This document shows positions 26,512-61,044 of a DNA stretch of 64,000 nucleotides, in pieces; positions within the stretch are counted from its first letter, which is position 1; each line of letters opens with the position of its first letter. This DNA comes from Gemmatimonadota bacterium (GTDB lineage: Bacteria > Gemmatimonadota > Gemmatimonadetes > Gemmatimonadales > GWC2-71-9). The DNA is taken from the NCBI GenBank assembly GCA_039590195.1, contig JBDHFY010000002.1:4660-68659 (forward strand). Direction: 5' to 3'. Both the position numbers and the translations under genes were made by a program. Under the pieces are notes generated by a model. The model was given only the letters and a program-made list of their open reading frames with translations. It searched no databases and was not told where the DNA came from.

Positions 26512-28592
26512 TGGGGCTCCGCCTCGACACGCCGGTTCAATATCTCAAGGGGGTTGGACCGCGGAGGGCGGAAGCTTTCGCCCGGGTGGGTGTCGCCACC
26601 GTGGAGGACTTGCTCTACCATCTCCCCCACCGCTACCTCGACGCCACCCTAGTGACCCCCGTGGCCAGAGCCGATGTCGGCACCGAAGTGACGTTGGTTG
26701 GTCGGGTGGTCTCGAAGGGTGTGCTGCCGACCCGACGCCGCCTGCGAATCTTCCGTGCGGTCATCAAAGATGCCTCCGGCCTCATCGAGTGCGCGTGGCC
26801 CGGCCAGGCGTTCCTCGACCGTACTGTTCGGGAGGGACAACTGCTGCTGGTGTCCGGACCGGTCAAGTACTACCACGGCCGCCAGATCGTTCCTCGGGAG
26901 CACATCGTGCTGTCCGAGCCCGACGACGATAGTGGGGAGGAAGAAGAGGAACAGGGCGTAGTGGTTCCCATCTATCCGGCGACGGAGGGTCTCACTCACC
27001 GCCAGATCCGGCGAGTGATCGGTCTTCATCTCGACGACATGCTGGCGTGCGTCGAGGAGTCGACCCCCCGTGTGTTCCTCCGGGGGGTGGAATTGCCGCC
27101 GTTGAAGGAAGCGCTGCTCGCAGTTCACCGGCCCGCATCGGTGGATCAAGCCGAGCGAGGACGACGGCGGTTTGCGTTTGATGAGTTGCTGGATCTCCAA
27201 TTCGTGCTGGCCCGTGCGCGATACCTCGCAAAGCACACGACGGAGGGTGTGCAACACGTAGTGAAGAAGGACCTCACCACCGCCCTCAAGAATGCGCTTC
27301 CGTTTGACCTGACGGCGGGCCAGCGTCGCGCCGTTCGCGAGATCACCGCGGACATGGCCTCCCCTGAACGAATGCACCGCCTGCTCATGGGCGATGTGGG
27401 GTCCGGCAAGACCGTCGTCGCGCTCTTTGCCGTCCTGCTCGCCCTGGAGAACGACCGTCAGGCCGTTTTCATGGCGCCGACGGAGCTGTTGGCCGAGCAA
27501 CACGCTCGGACGATATCCGCGCTGCTCGCACCGCTCGGGCTCGTTCCGGAGGTCCTGCTTGGGCGCTTGCAGCCTTCGGAGAAGGCAGCGATCCGCCGCC
27601 GAATCGCCGACGGCAGCGGAAGGGTCGTGATCGGCACCCACGCCCTCTTTCAGGAGAAGACGGAGTTCGGGAGTCTTGGCCTCGTGGTGATCGACGAGCA
27701 ACACCGCTTTGGGGTGGAGCAACGCGCGGCGCTCATTGCCAAAGGTGAAGCGCCCGACGTGCTGCTCCTCTCGGCCACGCCGATTCCCCGCACATTGGCG
27801 TTTACGCTCTACGGCGACCTCGATATCTCGATGCTCCGGGAAAAGCCGATGGGCCGTTTGCGAGTGAGAACCGGGATCAGGACCAGCCGTGACCGATCGA
27901 AGATCTACGGCTTCCTGAAGGAGCAGTGCGCAGCGGGCCGGCAGGTCTATGTGGTGTATCCTGTCATCGACGAGTCAGAAAAAGTCGATCTCAAGGCCGC
28001 CACAACCATGGCTGGAAAGCTCGCGGAGGAGCTGGCGCCCCTCACGGTTGGGCTCGTACACGGTAACCTGAGTGCGGATGAGCGCGACAATGTGATGCGG
28101 ACTTTTCGTGACGGCGGCATCGACGTACTGGTGGCCACGACGGTCATCGAAGTGGGCATCGACGTCCCGAACGCCACGGTCATGATTGTCGAGCATCCCG
28201 AGCGGTTCGGTCTCGCCCAGCTCCACCAGCTTCGCGGCCGTGTGGGTCGTGGCGCCGAGGAGAGCCATTGTATTCTGATCTCCGACGAAGGCGGTGGGGT
28301 GACCAGAGAACGGCTGCGGCGGTTCGCCCGCACAGCCGATGGCTTCAAGATCGCGGAACTCGATCTGAGGGAGCGAGGCATGGGCGAGCTCGCCGGAGCG
28401 AGGCAGTCCGGTGGGATCACCCTCCGCTACACCGATCTGTCCAAGGACGACGACCTGATCGTGGCAGCACGGAGGGCTGCCTTTGACGTCGTGCAGCGTG
28501 ATCCGACATTGGAAACGCGTGACTACGAACTGCTGCGAAAGCGGATCGAACGCCGCTACGGCAGGGGAATGGAGTTGTTTGCCGTGAGGTAG
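26511..28592 (+). CDS. recG: ATP-dependent DNA helicase RecG
   Basis: It has a wedge/OB N-terminal region, then LTAGQRRA, GDVGSGKT, DEQHRFGV and QLRGRVGRG helicase motifs. The start abuts the ftsY stop (TGATG). Confidence 0.9.
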   Translation: MGLRLDTPVQYLKGVGPRRAEAFARVGVATVEDLLYHLPHRYLDATLVTPVARADVGTEVTLVGRVVSKGVLPTRRRLRIFRAVIKDASGLIECAWPGQAFLDRTVREGQLLLVSGPVKYYHGRQIVPREHIVLSEPDDDSGEEEEEQGVVVPIYPATEGLTHRQIRRVIGLHLDDMLACVEESTPRVFLRGVELPPLKEALLAVHRPASVDQAERGRRRFAFDELLDLQFVLARARYLAKHTTEGVQHVVKKDLTTALKNALPFDLTAGQRRAVREITADMASPERMHRLLMGDVGSGKTVVALFAVLLALENDRQAVFMAPTELLAEQHARTISALLAPLGLVPEVLLGRLQPSEKAAIRRRIADGSGRVVIGTHALFQEKTEFGSLGLVVIDEQHRFGVEQRAALIAKGEAPDVLLLSATPIPRTLAFTLYGDLDISMLREKPMGRLRVRTGIRTSRDRSKIYGFLKEQCAAGRQVYVVYPVIDESEKVDLKAATTMAGKLAEELAPLTVGLVHGNLSADERDNVMRTFRDGGIDVLVATTVIEVGIDVPNATVMIVEHPERFGLAQLHQLRGRVGRGAEESHCILISDEGGGVTRERLRRFARTADGFKIAELDLRERGMGELAGARQSGGITLRYTDLSKDDDLIVAARRAAFDVVQRDPTLETRDYELLRKRIERRYGRGMELFAVR

Positions 28593-28619
28593 GCACGGGC
28601 GCGTTTGCCTGGAATGCCC

Positions 28620-28955
28620 TTACCTCAGCACCTCGTCGCACTTCGCCGCTAGGATGAAGTCGCTTTCCGTCAGCCCGTCGATCTTGTGAGTCCAGATCGT
28701 GATCCTCACCTTTCCCCACGCAAGATAGATGTCGGGATGGTGCTGTTGCTCCTCCGCCAGGGCACCGACCTGGTTGGTGAACTCGAGGGCCTGCACGAAG
28801 TCCTCCAACCGGTACTCCTTGTCGAGGTGATGGTCGTCGATCACTTTCCATTCATTGCCGAGCTTGGCCAGGAGATCCTGAATCGCATCTCCCTCGAGTG
28901 GTGGGACACCTCCTCTACACGGAACGCAGTGCTTGGCAGCGAGTTCGCTGGGCAT
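28620..28955 (-). CDS. phhB: 4a-hydroxytetrahydrobiopterin (pterin-4-alpha-carbinolamine) dehydratase
   Basis: 111 aa with CVPC..G..PL, EEQQHHPD and WTHKI..LTESDFILAAK, as in the PCD/DCoH family. Confidence 0.85.
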   Translation of the reverse strand: MPSELAAKHCVPCRGGVPPLEGDAIQDLLAKLGNEWKVIDDHHLDKEYRLEDFVQALEFTNQVGALAEEQQHHPDIYLAWGKVRITIWTHKIDGLTESDFILAAKCDEVLR

Positions 28956-29043
28956 GGTTACCTCGGTGGACTCGACGGTTCGAGATTTGTGACAGAGGCT
29001 AAGATCCTAAACTGCGGCTCGGATAGCGGCAAGATGTCCAGTC

Positions 29044-29075
29044 GGGCTTGGGGCTTGGGGCTTAGGGCTTGGGGC
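29044..29075. repeat. Tandem 7-nt array GGG(CTTGGGG)2(CTTAGGG)(CTTGGGG)C; left arm of an inverted pair
   Basis: Read directly from the sequence. It overlaps the stop codon and last codons of the 4HB ORF. Confidence 0.95.
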
Positions 29076-29424
29076 GTCCCGGAGCCAGCTCACGACGCCG
29101 CTGCTTGAGCTTCCTAATGAGGGCCGCCAGCATTCGCCCGATCCTCGCGGTTTGGCCGAGCACCTGCTGGACCGTCTGGGCGCCCACGAATCCTAGTCGA
29201 TTCGCTATGAGCATCTGTGTCTCCAGCTCCTTCAACGACCCGTTTGAGATAGACAGGTGCCGTATGTAATCCCCCAATTGGTTTCGCCCATACCCCTCGG
29301 CAATGTTGGAAGGGACCGACACGGCAGCTCGACGAATCTGGGTCACCAAACCGTAGCGCTCACCATCTGGGAATTGCCCTGTGATCTTGTAGCTGTTGAC
29401 GACCAGAGCCATGCCGGCCGCCAA
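29062..29424 (-). CDS. Four-helix-bundle protein (23S rRNA intervening-sequence protein family); apparently frameshifted near its 5' end
   Basis: YKITGQFPDGERYGLVTQIRRAAVSVPSNIAEGYGR...NGSLKELETQ is the family signature. The expected N-terminal YRDLRVW helix lies just upstream in another frame (to ATG 29480); see findings. Confidence 0.8.
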   Translation of the reverse strand: MAAGMALVVNSYKITGQFPDGERYGLVTQIRRAAVSVPSNIAEGYGRNQLGDYIRHLSISNGSLKELETQMLIANRLGFVGAQTVQQVLGQTARIGRMLAALIRKLKQRRRELAPGRPKP

Positions 29425-29604
29425 ACCCGGAGATCCCGGTAACTGAGAATTGGACTGCGTTTGTGGTCAGACTGCGACATGCTCCACCTGCCGTTGAATG
29501 AAGACAACCTATTGCGCAGTCCCGGCTTTCCGTCATCATCTTGACGCACATTGAATCATTTTTATCTATGACCTGTGAGGTAAGTTATCTTCGGGGCCCA
29601 ATTC

Positions 29605-29658
29605 TTAAGCCTTAAGCCTTAAGCCTTAAGCCCTAAGCCCTAAGCCCTAAGCCCCAAG
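29605..29658. repeat. Tandem 7-nt array (TTAAGCC)4(CTAAGCC)3CCAAG; right arm, inverted relative to 29044-29075
   Basis: Read directly from the sequence. It ends 6 nt before the asnS ATG. Confidence 0.95.
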
Positions 29659-29664
29659 TTCTCC

Positions 29665-30963
29665 ATGGACGAACAGCTGCAAATCAAAGATCTGCCAAGT
29701 TGCGTCGGCGACACGGTCACCGTGCGAGGATGGGTGGCCAACACAAGGTCCAGCGGCAAGATCGCGTTCCTCGTCCTCCGGGATGGAACCGGGTTACTGC
29801 AGTGTGTAGTGCCCAAGAACGAGGTGACGGAAGAGGTGTGGGACCGCGTCCGCACCCTCACGCAGGAAACCTCGGTTGCGGCCACAGGATCGATCCGCGC
29901 CGATGCACGGTCGCCCGGCGGTGTGGAACTCGGCCTCGCCAATCTCGCGGTGCTCGGCACGAGCGTTGATTTCCCCATCTCGCCCAAGGAGCACGGCACG
30001 AGCTTTCTCTTCGAGCACCGGCACCTGTGGCTGCGCTCCAAGGGCCAAACCGCCATCATGCGGGTTCGCCACGAAGTCGTTCAGGCGATCCGCGATTTCT
30101 TCTACGAGCGTGATTTCGTGCTCGTGGATACTCCGTTACTCACCGGTGCCATCGGCGAGGAGGCCGCCAACCTCTTCGAGACCGACTATTTCGATCTGGG
30201 GAAAGCTTACCTGGCCCAAACCGGACAACTCTATCTCGAGGCCGCTGCTGCCGCCCTCGGCAAGGTGTACTGCTTCGGTCCCACATTTCGCGCCGAAAAG
30301 TCCAAGACGCGCCGGCACCTCACAGAGTTCTGGATGGTGGAACCGGAGGTGGCATGGTATGACTCCGACGACAACATGCGCCTCCAGGAGGATTTCGTTT
30401 CATACATCGTCGAGCGATGCCTGGCTCGGCGAAAGGACGAGCTGGGGCAACTCGAGCGCGACACGGCGCCACTGGAGCAGGTGCATCCGCCGTTTCACCG
30501 GATCTCGTATACGGATGCGGTGGCCAAGCTGGCGACGTTGGGCCAAGAGATTTCCTGGGGCCAGGACCTCGGCGGTGAGGACGAAACGGTGCTCGCCAAC
30601 GCGTTTGATCGGCCCGTCTTCGTGTATAACTATCCCCGCGAGGTGAAGGCGTTCTACATGAAACGCAATCCGGACGATCCTCGAACGGTGCTGAACAACG
30701 ACTGTTTGGCGCCGGAAGGCTACGGGGAAATCATCGGGGGGAGCCAGCGCGAGGACGACCACGACTTCTTGCTGCAGCGCATCCACGAGGAGGGGCTGCC
30801 GGAGGAGGCGTACGCCTGGTACCTCGATCTACGGAAGTACGGTACCTTCGTGCACTCCGGATTCGGTCTGGGAGTCGAGCGCGTCGTCGCCTGGATTTGC
30901 GGGATTCCCCATGTTCGCGAGGCAATCGCCTTCCCGCGGCAGATGCACCGCCTATATCCTTGA
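29665..30963 (+). CDS. asnS: Asparagine--tRNA ligase
   Basis: It has an OB anticodon-binding N-terminal region (VTVRGWV...R..GKIAFLVLRDGTG) and class II motifs (FGPTFRAE.S.T.RHL.EFWM.E, GFGLG.ER). The 432-aa size is typical of AsnS. Confidence 0.9.
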   Translation: MDEQLQIKDLPSCVGDTVTVRGWVANTRSSGKIAFLVLRDGTGLLQCVVPKNEVTEEVWDRVRTLTQETSVAATGSIRADARSPGGVELGLANLAVLGTSVDFPISPKEHGTSFLFEHRHLWLRSKGQTAIMRVRHEVVQAIRDFFYERDFVLVDTPLLTGAIGEEAANLFETDYFDLGKAYLAQTGQLYLEAAAAALGKVYCFGPTFRAEKSKTRRHLTEFWMVEPEVAWYDSDDNMRLQEDFVSYIVERCLARRKDELGQLERDTAPLEQVHPPFHRISYTDAVAKLATLGQEISWGQDLGGEDETVLANAFDRPVFVYNYPREVKAFYMKRNPDDPRTVLNNDCLAPEGYGEIIGGSQREDDHDFLLQRIHEEGLPEEAYAWYLDLRKYGTFVHSGFGLGVERVVAWICGIPHVREAIAFPRQMHRLYP

Positions 30964-30991
30964 AGGGCGGCCCGACCCGGCATCGACCGCC

Positions 30992-31768
30992 TCAACCACC
31001 TTTTTTTGTTTCCTCCCACAGCGTATCCAACTCCTCGAGTGACGCGCGACCCACGTCGATCGCCCTTGCCGCCGCCAGTTCCTCGACTCGACGGAACCGC
31101 TTCATGAACTGCTCGTTGGCCCGCTCGAGCGCTGCTCGCGGGTCGCACCGAACCTTCCGCGCAAGATTGACCACCGAGAAAAGGAGGTCGCCGATTTCCG
31201 CCTCCACCCGCCGGGGGTCGGTGTCGGCGTCGAGTTCAGCGTCCAGTTCTGCCAGTTCTTCGGAGACCTTCTTCCGTGGTCCCTCGGCATCTGGCCAATC
31301 GAATCCCACACCCGCCGCCCGCTCCTGGAGGCGATAGGCCATGAGCAGCGCAGGAAGGGTGGGAGGCAGCCCGTCGAGAACGCTGCGGGGTTCTCGGTTG
31401 GATTCGTTCGTCTCCTTGAGCTTGTGACGCTCCCAACTCTCGGGGGCAGTGCCCTGCCCAAAGAGATGGGGGTGCCGGCGCCACATCTTGGTCTCGATGG
31501 CCCGGGTAACGTCTTCCGCGCCAAACGCCCCGCTTTCCTCACCCAGCACAATCTGGAAGGCCAGGTGCAGTAAGAGATCTCCCAGCTCGTGCGTGATTTC
31601 TTCGCGCGTCCCGGCCGCCAGGGCCTGATCGAGTTCGAGGACTTCTTCGACCAAGTAGGGCCGCAGCGTCTGTGGGGTTTGTGCGGCGTCCCAGGGACAG
31701 CGCTTGCGCAAATCCCTCACCAGCTCGACAATGCGGCCAAGCACCGATGGTTCTTGCATTTGCGGCAT
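30992..31768 (-). CDS. mazG: Nucleoside triphosphate pyrophosphohydrolase MazG
   Basis: LR..CPWD..QT...L..YL.EE..E and two EE.GD MazG repeats are present. The start was moved to ATG 31768 so that it does not overlap the divergent alr gene. Confidence 0.85.
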   Translation of the reverse strand: MPQMQEPSVLGRIVELVRDLRKRCPWDAAQTPQTLRPYLVEEVLELDQALAAGTREEITHELGDLLLHLAFQIVLGEESGAFGAEDVTRAIETKMWRRHPHLFGQGTAPESWERHKLKETNESNREPRSVLDGLPPTLPALLMAYRLQERAAGVGFDWPDAEGPRKKVSEELAELDAELDADTDPRRVEAEIGDLLFSVVNLARKVRCDPRAALERANEQFMKRFRRVEELAAARAIDVGRASLEELDTLWEETKKGG

Positions 31769-60492: not shown

Positions 60493-60525
60493 GCTGGCAG
60501 CTGGCAGCTGGCAGCTGGCGGCTGG
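60493..60525. repeat. Tandem 7-nt array (GCTGGCA)3 GCTGGCG GCTGG
   Basis: Read directly from the sequence. It lies 22 nt upstream of the nuclease start and just before the GAGGGGAGGGGGGAAG purine run. Confidence 0.95.
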
Positions 60526-60546: not shown

Positions 60547-61044
60547 ATGATCGAAGTGACCGTCGCCCACTTGGGATTGGATCAGAAGACCAATACGCCA
60601 GTCGTGATCCTGCAGGAGAAGGGTGGGGAGCGTGTACTCTCGATCTGGATTGGTCCGGCAGAGGCGAGCGCGATCGCCATGGAACTCGCCGGCATCAAAT
60701 TCGCGCGTCCGCTCACCCACGATCTCCTCCGGCAGGTAGTCGTCGGACTCGGAGCGGAGCTGGACCGTGTTGTGATCACGCGTGTGAAAGACAACACGTA
60801 TTACGCTGAGCTGCATATCCACCGGGACGACCACGTGGTACAGATCGATGCCCGGCCGTCGGACAGCATTGCCGTCGCGTTGCGGTTGAAATCGCCGATC
60901 TTCACGAGCGAGGAACTCCTGAACAGCAGTGAATCGATTGATGCTGTCGATCCGACGCAACAGCCCGGTCCGCTCGACGCCGACCAGCTCAAGAACTACC
61001 TCCAGAATCTGGATCCTGAAGATTTCGGCAAGTTCACTCCGTAA
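60547..61044 (+). CDS. Bifunctional nuclease family protein (DUF151)
   Basis: PVVILQEKGGERVLSIWIG..EA.AIA......KF.RPLTHDL and Y.AEL are typical of the DUF151/BFN family. Confidence 0.75.
   Translation: MIEVTVAHLGLDQKTNTPVVILQEKGGERVLSIWIGPAEASAIAMELAGIKFARPLTHDLLRQVVVGLGAELDRVVITRVKDNTYYAELHIHRDDHVVQIDARPSDSIAVALRLKSPIFTSEELLNSSESIDAVDPTQQPGPLDADQLKNYLQNLDPEDFGKFTP

Follow-up and report, generated by a model that had tools for sequence, protein, structure and literature searches.

The element described here has features of two kinds of bacterial sequence. The first is the intervening sequence (IVS) of 23S rRNA that carries an open reading frame (ORF). In Coxiella burnetii, a 428-nt IVS lies in helix 45 of the 23S rRNA; its S23p ORF, sense to the rRNA and decaying, is preceded by two to three copies of GACAGAT whose number varies between strains, its ends pair into a 28-bp stem, and the RNase III cut falls where the first repeat begins (PMC4990558). 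The second is the heptameric simple sequence repeat (SSR), the commonest long SSR class in bacteria according to Mrazek 2007 as cited in two later papers (PMC4692102 and PMC4679880). Xanthomonas genomes hold about 186 arrays of GGGAATC, with 70-75 convergent inverted pairs per genome, and these arrays form G-quadruplexes (Rehm et al. 2015, PMC4692102); in Beggiatoaceae, arrays of TAACTGA stand just upstream of start codons (MacGregor 2015, PMC4679880). S23p and its four-helix-bundle (4HB) fold are mentioned nowhere in PMC4692102 or PMC4679880 (0 occurrences). We analysed a 64,000-nt stretch of Gemmatimonadota DNA (the window, in whose coordinates all window positions are given) where the two come together: a gene of the S23p family, hereafter the 4HB gene, lies on the minus strand between phhB and asnS and is enclosed by two inverted arrays of a 7-nt unit (29044-29658). 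The arrays and what they enclose are called the cassette, and its arms are named upstream and downstream relative to the gene.

The downstream arm is the left array (29044..29075, no strand assigned), in which TRF found 4.6 copies of the unit GGGCTTG with period 7; on the gene's strand it is C-rich and reads GCCCCAAGCCCTAAGCCCCAAGCCCCAAGCCC. The upstream arm is the right array (29604..29658, likewise without strand), called with period 7, unit CTTAAGC and 7.1 copies at 29604-29653, and extending past that call to 29658, 6 nt from the asnS ATG; on the gene's strand it is G-rich, CTTGGGG (CTTAGGG)3 (CTTAAGG)3 CTTAAG. TRF matches within the two arrays reach 92-97%, and both consist of head-to-tail 7-nt units in non-coding DNA, as do heptameric SSRs and the short tandemly repeated repetitive (STRR) sequences. 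Segment 29047-29075 is the inverse of 29630-29658 over 29 nt with 93% complementarity, and the periodicity of the arms lets longer registers pair too, for an overall 29-32 nt at 88-93% complementarity (inverted repeats I1-I4). The window has 10 matches to the two-unit pattern CTTRGGGCTTRGGG where 1.08 would be expected, and nine fall inside the two arrays. TRF and the inverted-repeat match thus agree on what a sequence-only reading of this locus had described, namely inverted 7-nt arrays around a 4HB gene in the phhB-asnS interval. That reading had also placed the end of the ORF in the left array, and the C-terminal residues (..PKP) and the TAA stop (29064-29062) are indeed encoded there. A cassette with identical arrays occurs in an independent assembly (sibling contig L308), which rules out an assembly artefact as their source.

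As RNA, the arms alone are predicted to form a duplex of 32 bp with -70.3 kcal/mol for the plus strand and -56.8 for the minus strand, against -27.6 +/- 3.8 for shuffled arms. The terminal stem that the sequence-only reading had proposed also closed when a 636-nt RNA spanning the cassette was folded, on either strand (z of -4.6 for plus and -3.3 for minus). Its suggestion that the two arm mismatches would be G·U pairs is correct for the plus strand, antisense to the 4HB gene, but they become C·A on the strand of the gene. The AT-rich interior was there as described, with a G+C fraction of 0.45-0.49 over 29440-29680 vs 0.58-0.67 in the surroundings. Like a 23S rRNA IVS, the cassette ends in inverted repeats that could fold into a long stem; it is not inserted in helix 25 or 45 of 23S rRNA, its neighbours being phhB and asnS, and an Rfam search of 28000-31000 at E<=1 gave no match. 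No direct repeat was evident beside the arms; the relatives with an empty site are distant (AsnS 79-81% identity), too far off for the junctions to be placed.

To see how far this layout extends, three independent samples of loci encoding relatives of 33-83% identity were collected, and arms were counted when at least 16 nt were paired. Arms were present at 30 of 35 loci from genomes with the window ORF as query (the window included), at 40 of 44 loci from metagenomes, and at 61 of 71 loci from genomes with Xcc0516 of Xanthomonas campestris as query, that is at 131 of 150 4HB loci (~87%). G exceeded C in the upstream arm in 26, 38 and 57 cases, respectively, and C exceeded G in 3, 1 and 4, so that over all samples G prevails in the upstream arm 121 times and C 8 times, with a mean composition of 40% G, 16% C, 22% A and 22% T. 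The best period was 7 in 36 of the 40 metagenomic cases and in 52 of the 61 found with Xcc0516 (it was not scored in the first sample). The arms measure ~30 nt each and lie ~445 nt apart, and their unit sequence varies from locus to locus. The loci come from taxa such as Gemmatimonadota, Planctomycetota, Acidobacteriota, Alpha-, Beta- and Gammaproteobacteria, Bacteroidota, Fibrobacterota, Verrucomicrobiota, Clostridia, bacteria of the candidate phyla radiation (CPR) and cyanobacteria. Cultured examples, with replicons in the plasmid collection, are Calothrix brevissima, Gemmatirosa kalamazoonensis and Riemerella anatipestifer. By these alignments there is a widespread class of cassettes, in which a 4HB gene of ~120-140 codons and a short leader lie between inverted 7-nt (sometimes 8-nt) arrays, with the upstream arm G-rich on the sense strand.

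Could the arrays be ordinary slippage-prone microsatellites, or terminator-like hairpins of intergenic DNA, unrelated to the 4HB gene? Heptamers being so common a class of SSR (Mrazek 2007, in the citing papers named above), this has to be weighed, and heptamer arrays away from 4HB genes are indeed plentiful. In ~711 kb from Gemmatimonadales, made up of the window and 80 asnS loci, we found many period-7 or period-8 arrays, often as short-loop hairpins, and the sole 4HB gene was that of the window; arrays follow recG and asnS in many relatives without a 4HB gene. Arrays of at least three CTTRGGG units were found on more than 120 contigs from many phyla. Among 120 such loci, 61 were unpaired, 18 were short-loop hairpins and two adjoined a 4HB gene; in these two the polarity was as expected and the loop measured ~380 nt. 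The sequence-only reading had itself named common unpaired arrays as something that would speak against it, which is in part what was found. The notion that the arrays are peculiar to the cassette has to be given up, heptamer arrays being a known and abundant intergenic repeat class (PMC4692102, PMC4679880). The association is asymmetric: a 4HB gene is accompanied by arrays with a probability of ~0.87, an array by a 4HB gene with a probability of a few per cent. Seen from the gene, though, coincidence accounts poorly for the counts. The score threshold was reached by 75% of the real loci vs 0.75% of displaced control windows at the same loci, polarity is 121:8, and outside Gemmatimonadales period-7 arrays occur at 2.2 per kb beside 4HB genes vs 0.19 per kb elsewhere in the same loci. 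Moreover, low-GC Bacteroidota, CPR bacteria, Clostridia and plasmids of cyanobacteria all show the layout, and empty phhB-asnS sites (see below) have no arrays. We regard coincidence as so improbable that it carries little weight.

Gene-less inverted heptamer hairpins were seen right after the stops of recG or asnS in many Gemmatimonadales, at L018 (92-220), L028 (2250-2349), L030 (2249-2320), L042 (2279-2347), L059 (2382-2482), L060 (1910-1971 and 2381-2444), L072 (3914-3982) and L079 (5290-5422). Their units differ between genomes at the orthologous site, and are sometimes common to related genomes. The CTTRGGG unit is found at many loci in single genomes, such as those of a Bifidobacteriaceae metagenome-assembled genome (MAG), Candidatus Ribeiella danica and a Vicinamibacterales MAG, and several of its arrays lie at the very ends of contigs (the loci behind these two observations are L125, L178, L187, L192, L200 and L225). 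They suggest genome-specific amplification of a unit and breaks of assembly at the arrays; as several arrays lie at contig ends, the cassettes probably break short-read assemblies. The window itself contains a second, unpaired period-7 array, (GCTGGCA)x4.7 at 60493-60525, lying just before a G-rich, Shine-Dalgarno-like stretch and the ATG at 60548, in the manner of the start-codon-proximal heptamer arrays of Beggiatoaceae.

We then compared the phhB-asnS site in relatives. The window comes from a Gemmatimonadales bacterium whose AsnS has a best identity of 81% among species representatives, and none of the 80 Gemmatimonadales loci fetched via AsnS has a 4HB gene at this position. At the eight where phhB and asnS adjoin (L001, L002, L003, L007, L009, L021, L022 and L029), the spacer measures 49-150 nt vs 709 nt in the window. 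The empty sites that the sequence-only reading had suggested looking for therefore exist, and since they carry no arrays, arrays and gene arrived together. In this comparison the cassette proves to be an insertion relative to the eight related genomes. The closest relatives of the protein (P0002 and P0004, 65-68% amino acid identity) are encoded at the same locus, in the order mazG-asnS, 4HB, phhB-recG (L394 and L396). L394 and the window share 95% identity in AsnS and 96% in PhhB, and their flanking DNA is 92-100% identical, but between 28965 and 29750 (no strand) identity falls to 42-78% by sliding identity and alignment, a tract that takes in the whole intergenic region and about the first 60-90 nt of asnS. 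The cassette-phhB spacer has an identity of 0.42-0.47 to that of L394, and the L394 arrays are made of GGGTGTA and CCCTACA units vs CTTRGGG in the window. L396, a more distant host (PhhB 89%), carries a cassette of the L394 type (78% protein identity, same GGGTGTA unit), and the relationships of the cassettes therefore disagree with those of the hosts. The site thus comes in three forms, namely empty, with a type A cassette (window, L308) and with a type B cassette (L394, L396). The flanking alignments show that a whole intergenic block has been swapped, by all appearances, for a different cassette allele in a relative with ~95% identical flanks. The divergent tract is not bounded by the arrays, as the 88-nt spacer, which holds the candidate phhB promoter, and the start of asnS both belong to it; because it overruns the arrays into asnS, crossovers in the conserved flanks fit better than array-bounded transposition. 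The possible mobility that the sequence-only reading had put forward is supported by this exchange between genomes, the mechanism itself being a matter of inference.

Elsewhere, cassettes sit tightly between housekeeping genes, at nuoC|nuoD, hisA|hisF, pyruvate dehydrogenase E1b|E2, CoA-transferase A|B and accB|accC, and directly after ssrA, and the upstream array often begins a few nt past the stop codon of the preceding gene. At 125 loci with two assessable neighbours, the 4HB gene was sense to both in 79, antisense to both in 15, convergent with the downstream gene in 24, and arranged as in the window in 7. The loci show that the usual position of a cassette is tight between conserved housekeeping genes and sense to the host operon. 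At several loci the stop codon of the neighbour falls within the first unit (CAGTAG in L084, CAGTGA in L091), a hint that local sequence may seed the units. One and the same site can carry different units whose arms are still complementary, as was found at nuoC|nuoD (L084, L091), hisA|hisF (L092, L093, L095, L087), accB|accC (L309, L310) and phhB|asnS (window, L394), and in close strains the copy number of the array differs on both arms. This co-variation favours pairing of the arms, and is silent on whether it takes place in RNA or DNA. At accB|accC, the Xcc0516 orthologue of Xanthomonas vasicola has inverted GGGAATC arrays (L309, ~1960-2000 and ~2370-2415), the seventh base of each unit being mismatched between the arms; L310 is from Pseudoxanthomonas.

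The 4HB gene of the window (29062..29481, minus strand) belongs to the 23S_rRNA_IVP / S23p / Avd-like family. The window ORF matched PF05635 at 1e-30 with 106.4 bits (cut-off 33.8) and TIGR02436 at 2e-32 with 111.8 bits (cut-off 24), and genes of this kind are very numerous: at E<=1e-10, 7771 relatives were found among the 8000 candidates examined in the first search. The ORF as listed, with a TTG start at 29424, has the wrong start and represents only the 3′ portion of a gene that is frameshifted. In another frame, at the ATG 29481-29479, begins the canonical N-terminus MSQSDHKRSPILSYRDLRVW (family pattern ..SYRDLRVW..), and relative to L308 (GCA_039587735.1, order asnS|4HB|phhB|recG) the window lacks one base between 29420 and 29419. 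The intact allele of L308 encodes a 139-aa protein (P0001, 99% identical). The two contigs are identical over ~790 nt including both arrays, save three differences within 27 nt (about 29397-29431, minus strand, 4HB codons ~17-28): a T/C change, the 1-nt deletion and a C/A change. This cluster could be due to real mutations, to strain heterogeneity collapsed in the consensus, or to a local assembly error. Because the ORF is frameshifted, an exact look-up of it matched no contig. With the start codon at 29481, the non-coding part that had been put at ~180 nt (29425-29604) shrinks to an AT-richer leader of ~122 nt (29482..29603, minus strand) between the upstream arm and the gene, with a G+C fraction of 0.45-0.49; its motif AAGATGATGACGG (minus strand, ~29525-29537) is common to the Gemmatimonadales cassettes of the window, L081, L085, L086 and L394.

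The protein contains the conserved core motif of the 23S_rRNA_IVP family, RxxxSxxxNxxE (PMC3936711), as RAAVSVPSNIAE. Its closest solved structure is Xcc0516 (PDB 2GSC), a homopentamer of four-helix bundles with ~45-50% identity, to which residues 13-128 align with an E of 1e-27; in the window, helix 1 is out of frame. Profiles of Avd matched below their cut-offs (PF22296, bAvd, 2.8e-6, 28.2 bits vs 40; NF033474, 1.2e-5, 25.6 bits vs 80), and the PHROG match was 'Avd protein of DGR' (diversity-generating retroelement), 2e-11. All matches in Pfam, NCBIfam and PHROG were to IVP/Avd families, and PADLOC gave no defence-system match for the protein.

The reading that we favour, with a probability of about one half, is by analogy with the rRNA copies: the cassette would be an IVS-like selfish element living outside rRNA, spread by recombination in its flanks, with arms that pair and are cut by RNase III. 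Having no mobility enzyme of its own, it would spread and be exchanged by homologous recombination through the highly conserved flanking genes, for which rRNA, tmRNA (transfer-messenger RNA) and core operons may serve as long homology arms. In any transcript that crosses the cassette, the arms would pair into a ~30-bp duplex; they probably form an RNase III-type stem, by analogy with the rRNA versions, and RNase III would cut it as it does there. Such a cut would loop the insert out, free the 4HB message and keep the insertion harmless to the host genes. The tandem-repeat arms would change by slippage and conversion while remaining complementary.

Several results weigh against this reading. 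In the window, the more stable stem is that of the strand antisense to the 4HB gene, and no promoter that would give a both-arm transcript was found at the locus. The spanning transcript imagined in the sequence-only reading would close its stem by computation, but at a divergent site such a transcript is doubtful. A sense-strand G·U bias, considered as a signature of RNA pairing, was rejected, as arm mismatches gave 21 vs 32 in the first sample and 40 vs 47 of 188 in the second; the pairing thus bears no mark of taking place in RNA and not in DNA. Cleavage by RNase III has been demonstrated solely for rRNA-borne copies (PMC4990558), and no rRNA was found around 20 other cassette loci, including CPR bacteria and one archaeon, so that the IVS comparison rests on PMC4990558. 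Gene-less array hairpins are common, both in the ~711 kb of Gemmatimonadales DNA and in Xanthomonas (PMC4692102), and the arms could therefore pre-exist the gene. The difference between the window and L394 could come from two independent insertions at a preferred site instead of allelic exchange. Finally, the G-rich/C-rich polarity is not accounted for by a plain double-stranded RNA model; stop-codon enrichment in the upstream arms and the G-quadruplex (G4) potential of a quarter of them are possible contributors.

These two contributors are central to another explanation, according to which the arms are expression insulators that act mainly on the neighbours and on the cassette's own expression, and not by way of excision: the G-rich arm would supply stops in several frames, a G-quadruplex or a Shine-Dalgarno-like sequence, and the C-rich arm would mask it, so that within an operon the cassette would be insulated in both translation and transcription. 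On the sense strand of 135 pooled upstream arms there were 2.2 stop triplets per arm vs 1.26 in downstream arms and 1.43 +/- 0.07 in shuffles, and with a period of 7 or 8 each successive unit is read in another frame. A stop codon in every upstream unit, closing three frames, was nevertheless only partly true, since all three frames are stopped in 37 of the 135 arms and 21 lack stops altogether. The surplus, about one stop per arm, may simply be the stop codon of the neighbour included in the arm. The G-richness of the upstream arms (40% G, 16% C) and the G-quadruplexes formed by GGGAATC arrays (PMC4692102) point the same way, with 33 of the 135 arms G4-capable, but 66 lack any G3 tract, and G4 potential was rejected as a universal feature of the arms. 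In L097 (2309-2452 and 2873-2905) and L112 (2255-2385 and 2844-2868) the arms have period 8, with tandem Shine-Dalgarno-like GGAGGTGA/C upstream and anti-Shine-Dalgarno-like CACCTCCT downstream. Arrays also abut the stop or start codons of neighbours, and TAACTGA arrays precede Beggiatoaceae start codons (PMC4679880). Insulation leaves the complementarity of the arms unaccounted for, and we think it quite unlikely.

A DNA-level mobile element built like repetitive extragenic palindromes and their associated tyrosine transposases (REP/RAYT), or like a miniature inverted-repeat transposable element (MITE), is unlikely too, though it has more to recommend it. The arrays would be its terminal repeats, forming hairpins or cruciforms on single strands, and the pentameric 4HB protein a trans factor that would bind, spread or maintain arrays, gene-less ones included. 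Gene-less inverted pairs are frequent in the same genomes, with the 70-75 of Xanthomonas as an example (PMC4692102), and the unit flanking the Xcc0516 orthologue, GGGAATC, is the one amplified ~186x in Xanthomonas genomes. Candidatus Ribeiella danica has several CTTRGGG-type arrays, with one of its 4HB genes flanked by the CTTRGGG unit, the arm mismatches lack a G·U bias, and 4HB genes on plasmids occur mostly in Nostoc, Calothrix and Anabaena, taxa where the heptamer STRR was first described. In some Gemmatimonadales cassettes, moreover, the inverted ends of 79 nt agree at 77/79 positions with the loop included, as true terminal inverted repeats would. Against this, no nuclease or recombinase motif is known for the 4HB fold; the protein matched IVP/Avd profiles only, and not the HUH/Y1, IS200/IS605-like transposases that define RAYTs, and PADLOC found nothing. 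GGGTGTA flanks dissimilar proteins in L394 and Calothrix (47% identity), as does CTTAGGG in the window and L136/L198 (46-48%), and related proteins at one site have different units, so that the protein apparently does not specify the unit; a correspondence between heptamer unit and protein relatedness, as sequence-specific recognition would give, was looked for and rejected. Many different units are found within a single 9-kb Gemmatimonadales stretch (L025), and the exchanged tract at the window locus is not array-bounded.

The cassettes with 79-nt ends form a Gemmatimonadales subfamily lying directly after the tmRNA gene ssrA (L083 454-1462; L251 1906-2262 onward; L247, L246, L235, L241). Each end is a G-array/loop/C-array hairpin, and it is in L247 that the ends are 77/79 identical. 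Inverted alignment of the ends was clearly better than direct alignment in L247 (74 vs 44.5) and L246 (51.5 vs 29), and marginally better in L235, L241, L251, L083 and L086; direct alignment was slightly better in L085. Direct ends are what a target duplication would give in these hairpin-ended cassettes. On the Nostoc sp. PCC 7120 plasmids gamma (L389) and alpha (L390), identical 4HB genes keep the downstream array (CTTCTGC/CCTCTGC) and have no upstream arm. A transposase gene lies just upstream of 4HB on both plasmids; that of L389, of the ISL3 family, shares the strand of the 4HB gene, and that of L390 runs the other way. This suggests truncation by insertion of an insertion sequence (IS) and co-mobilisation.

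A bolder idea, and a long shot in our estimation, is that 4HB proteins are the trans-acting partner of heptamer repeats in general, a pentameric nucleic-acid-binding ring that would bind, stabilise or propagate 7-nt arrays. A typical arm has 4-5 units, about one per subunit of the pentamer. If this were true, the excess of heptameric SSRs (STRR, GGGAATC, the Gemmatimonadales hairpins) and the ORF-bearing rRNA IVSs would be one selfish system.

Around the window cassette, phhB (pterin-4a-carbinolamine dehydratase, 28620..28955, minus strand, PF01329 1.5e-31) lies downstream on the same strand as the 4HB gene, and asnS (asparagine--tRNA ligase, 29665..30963, plus strand, NF003037 1.7e-166) is the divergent upstream neighbour; recG and mazG lie beyond them. 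As the sequence-only reading had stated, neither transposase nor integrase was found nearby, nor a reverse transcriptase, among neighbours comprising asnS, phhB, recG and an SRP54-family gene. Between 28900 and 29720, scans for sigma-70 sites and terminators gave no match. A relaxed promoter scan gave a candidate for phhB only, and none for asnS or the 4HB gene: TTGCCG (29032-29027), 17 nt and TAGGAT (29009-29004), in the 88-nt cassette-phhB spacer (28956..29043, minus strand), the L394 counterpart of which is TTGCCA-N17-TAGCAT. Relatives with an empty site have a TTGAC-N17-TAnnAT promoter ending ~9 nt before the asnS ATG (a leaderless-type layout), and L394 keeps such a promoter too. For asnS of the window it was not found (29600-29667), nor was any other plus-strand promoter; to judge from these scans, the asnS promoter is displaced by the cassette. 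One may speculate that asnS, presumably an essential gene, is transcribed by plus-strand read-through across the cassette, which would use the better, G·U-tolerant plus stem. The window copy is in any case atypical: it is of the rare divergent type and partly decayed, with the asnS promoter displaced and the gene frameshifted in this assembly.

The components of the cassette were already known, namely IVSs with S23p, heptamer SSRs and inverted pairs of the latter. The sequence-only reading knew of no description of this architecture, and we likewise found no published account of the polar bracketing of free-standing 4HB genes by inverted heptamers, nor of the block exchange, in a literature coverage that is incomplete and leaves a prior description possible. 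To our knowledge, PF05635/TIGR02436 proteins have a solved structure and no known function; we know of no explanation for the heptamer repeats of bacteria, nor of any means of spread that has become known for rRNA IVSs in more than 30 years. The arms at ~87% of 150 4HB genes, their fixed polarity, the sense placement and the block swap at phhB/asnS tie these three puzzles, 4HB genes, heptamer repeats and rRNA IVSs, together. Culturable carriers make the matter open to experiment, among them Xanthomonas with Xcc0516 in the accBC operon, Nostoc and Calothrix. In practical terms, cassettes can displace promoters, as that of asnS in the window, and they inflate lists of 'CRISPR-associated' genes, for instance through the 23S_rRNA_IVP genes found between cmr genes (PMC3936711).

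How, then, do the cassettes compare with described systems? With REP/RAYT systems (REPINs) they share a single small gene flanked by an inverted short repeat that is also scattered as gene-less hairpin pairs, but RAYTs are HUH/Y1 transposases with catalytic motifs and a genome-specific REP, whereas the 4HB protein has no catalytic motif and the heptamer varies by locus, not tracking protein relatedness. Avd of diversity-generating retroelements has the same fold and belongs to the same superfamily; the 4HB protein scores below the Avd cut-offs and has no reverse transcriptase among its neighbours (no search was made for a template/variable repeat pair). Heptameric SSRs (cyanobacterial STRR, Xanthomonas GGGAATC, Beggiatoaceae TAACTGA) resemble the arms in their 7-nt intergenic unit, variable copy number, frequent G-richness and G4 capacity and in abutting start or stop codons, and the arms of the Xcc0516 orthologue are GGGAATC arrays; as published, however, such arrays enclose no gene, whereas the cassette pair encloses a conserved gene with fixed polarity. 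That orthologue, in X. vasicola, has the same cassette layout as the window, and differs in its unit and host site (accB|accC). There is likewise a resemblance to the ORF-bearing 23S IVSs of Leptospira, Coxiella burnetii and Brucella, in the PF05635 ORF, sense and often decaying, the size of 430-760 nt, the ~28-bp terminal stem, the absence of a mobility gene and, in Coxiella, heptamers upstream of the ORF. The cassettes differ in lying outside rRNA, between protein-coding genes and here at a divergent promoter, and in having arms that are wholly heptamer arrays on both sides; RNase III processing is demonstrated for rRNA copies only. The IVS-like character seen by the sequence-only reading is upheld by a protein of the 23S_rRNA_IVP family and by the Coxiella IVS, likewise with heptamers and an S23p ORF (PMC4990558). 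With all sequence-level features of the Coxiella description matched, the cassettes would, by analogy, be the free-standing counterparts of the ORF-bearing 23S rRNA IVSs.

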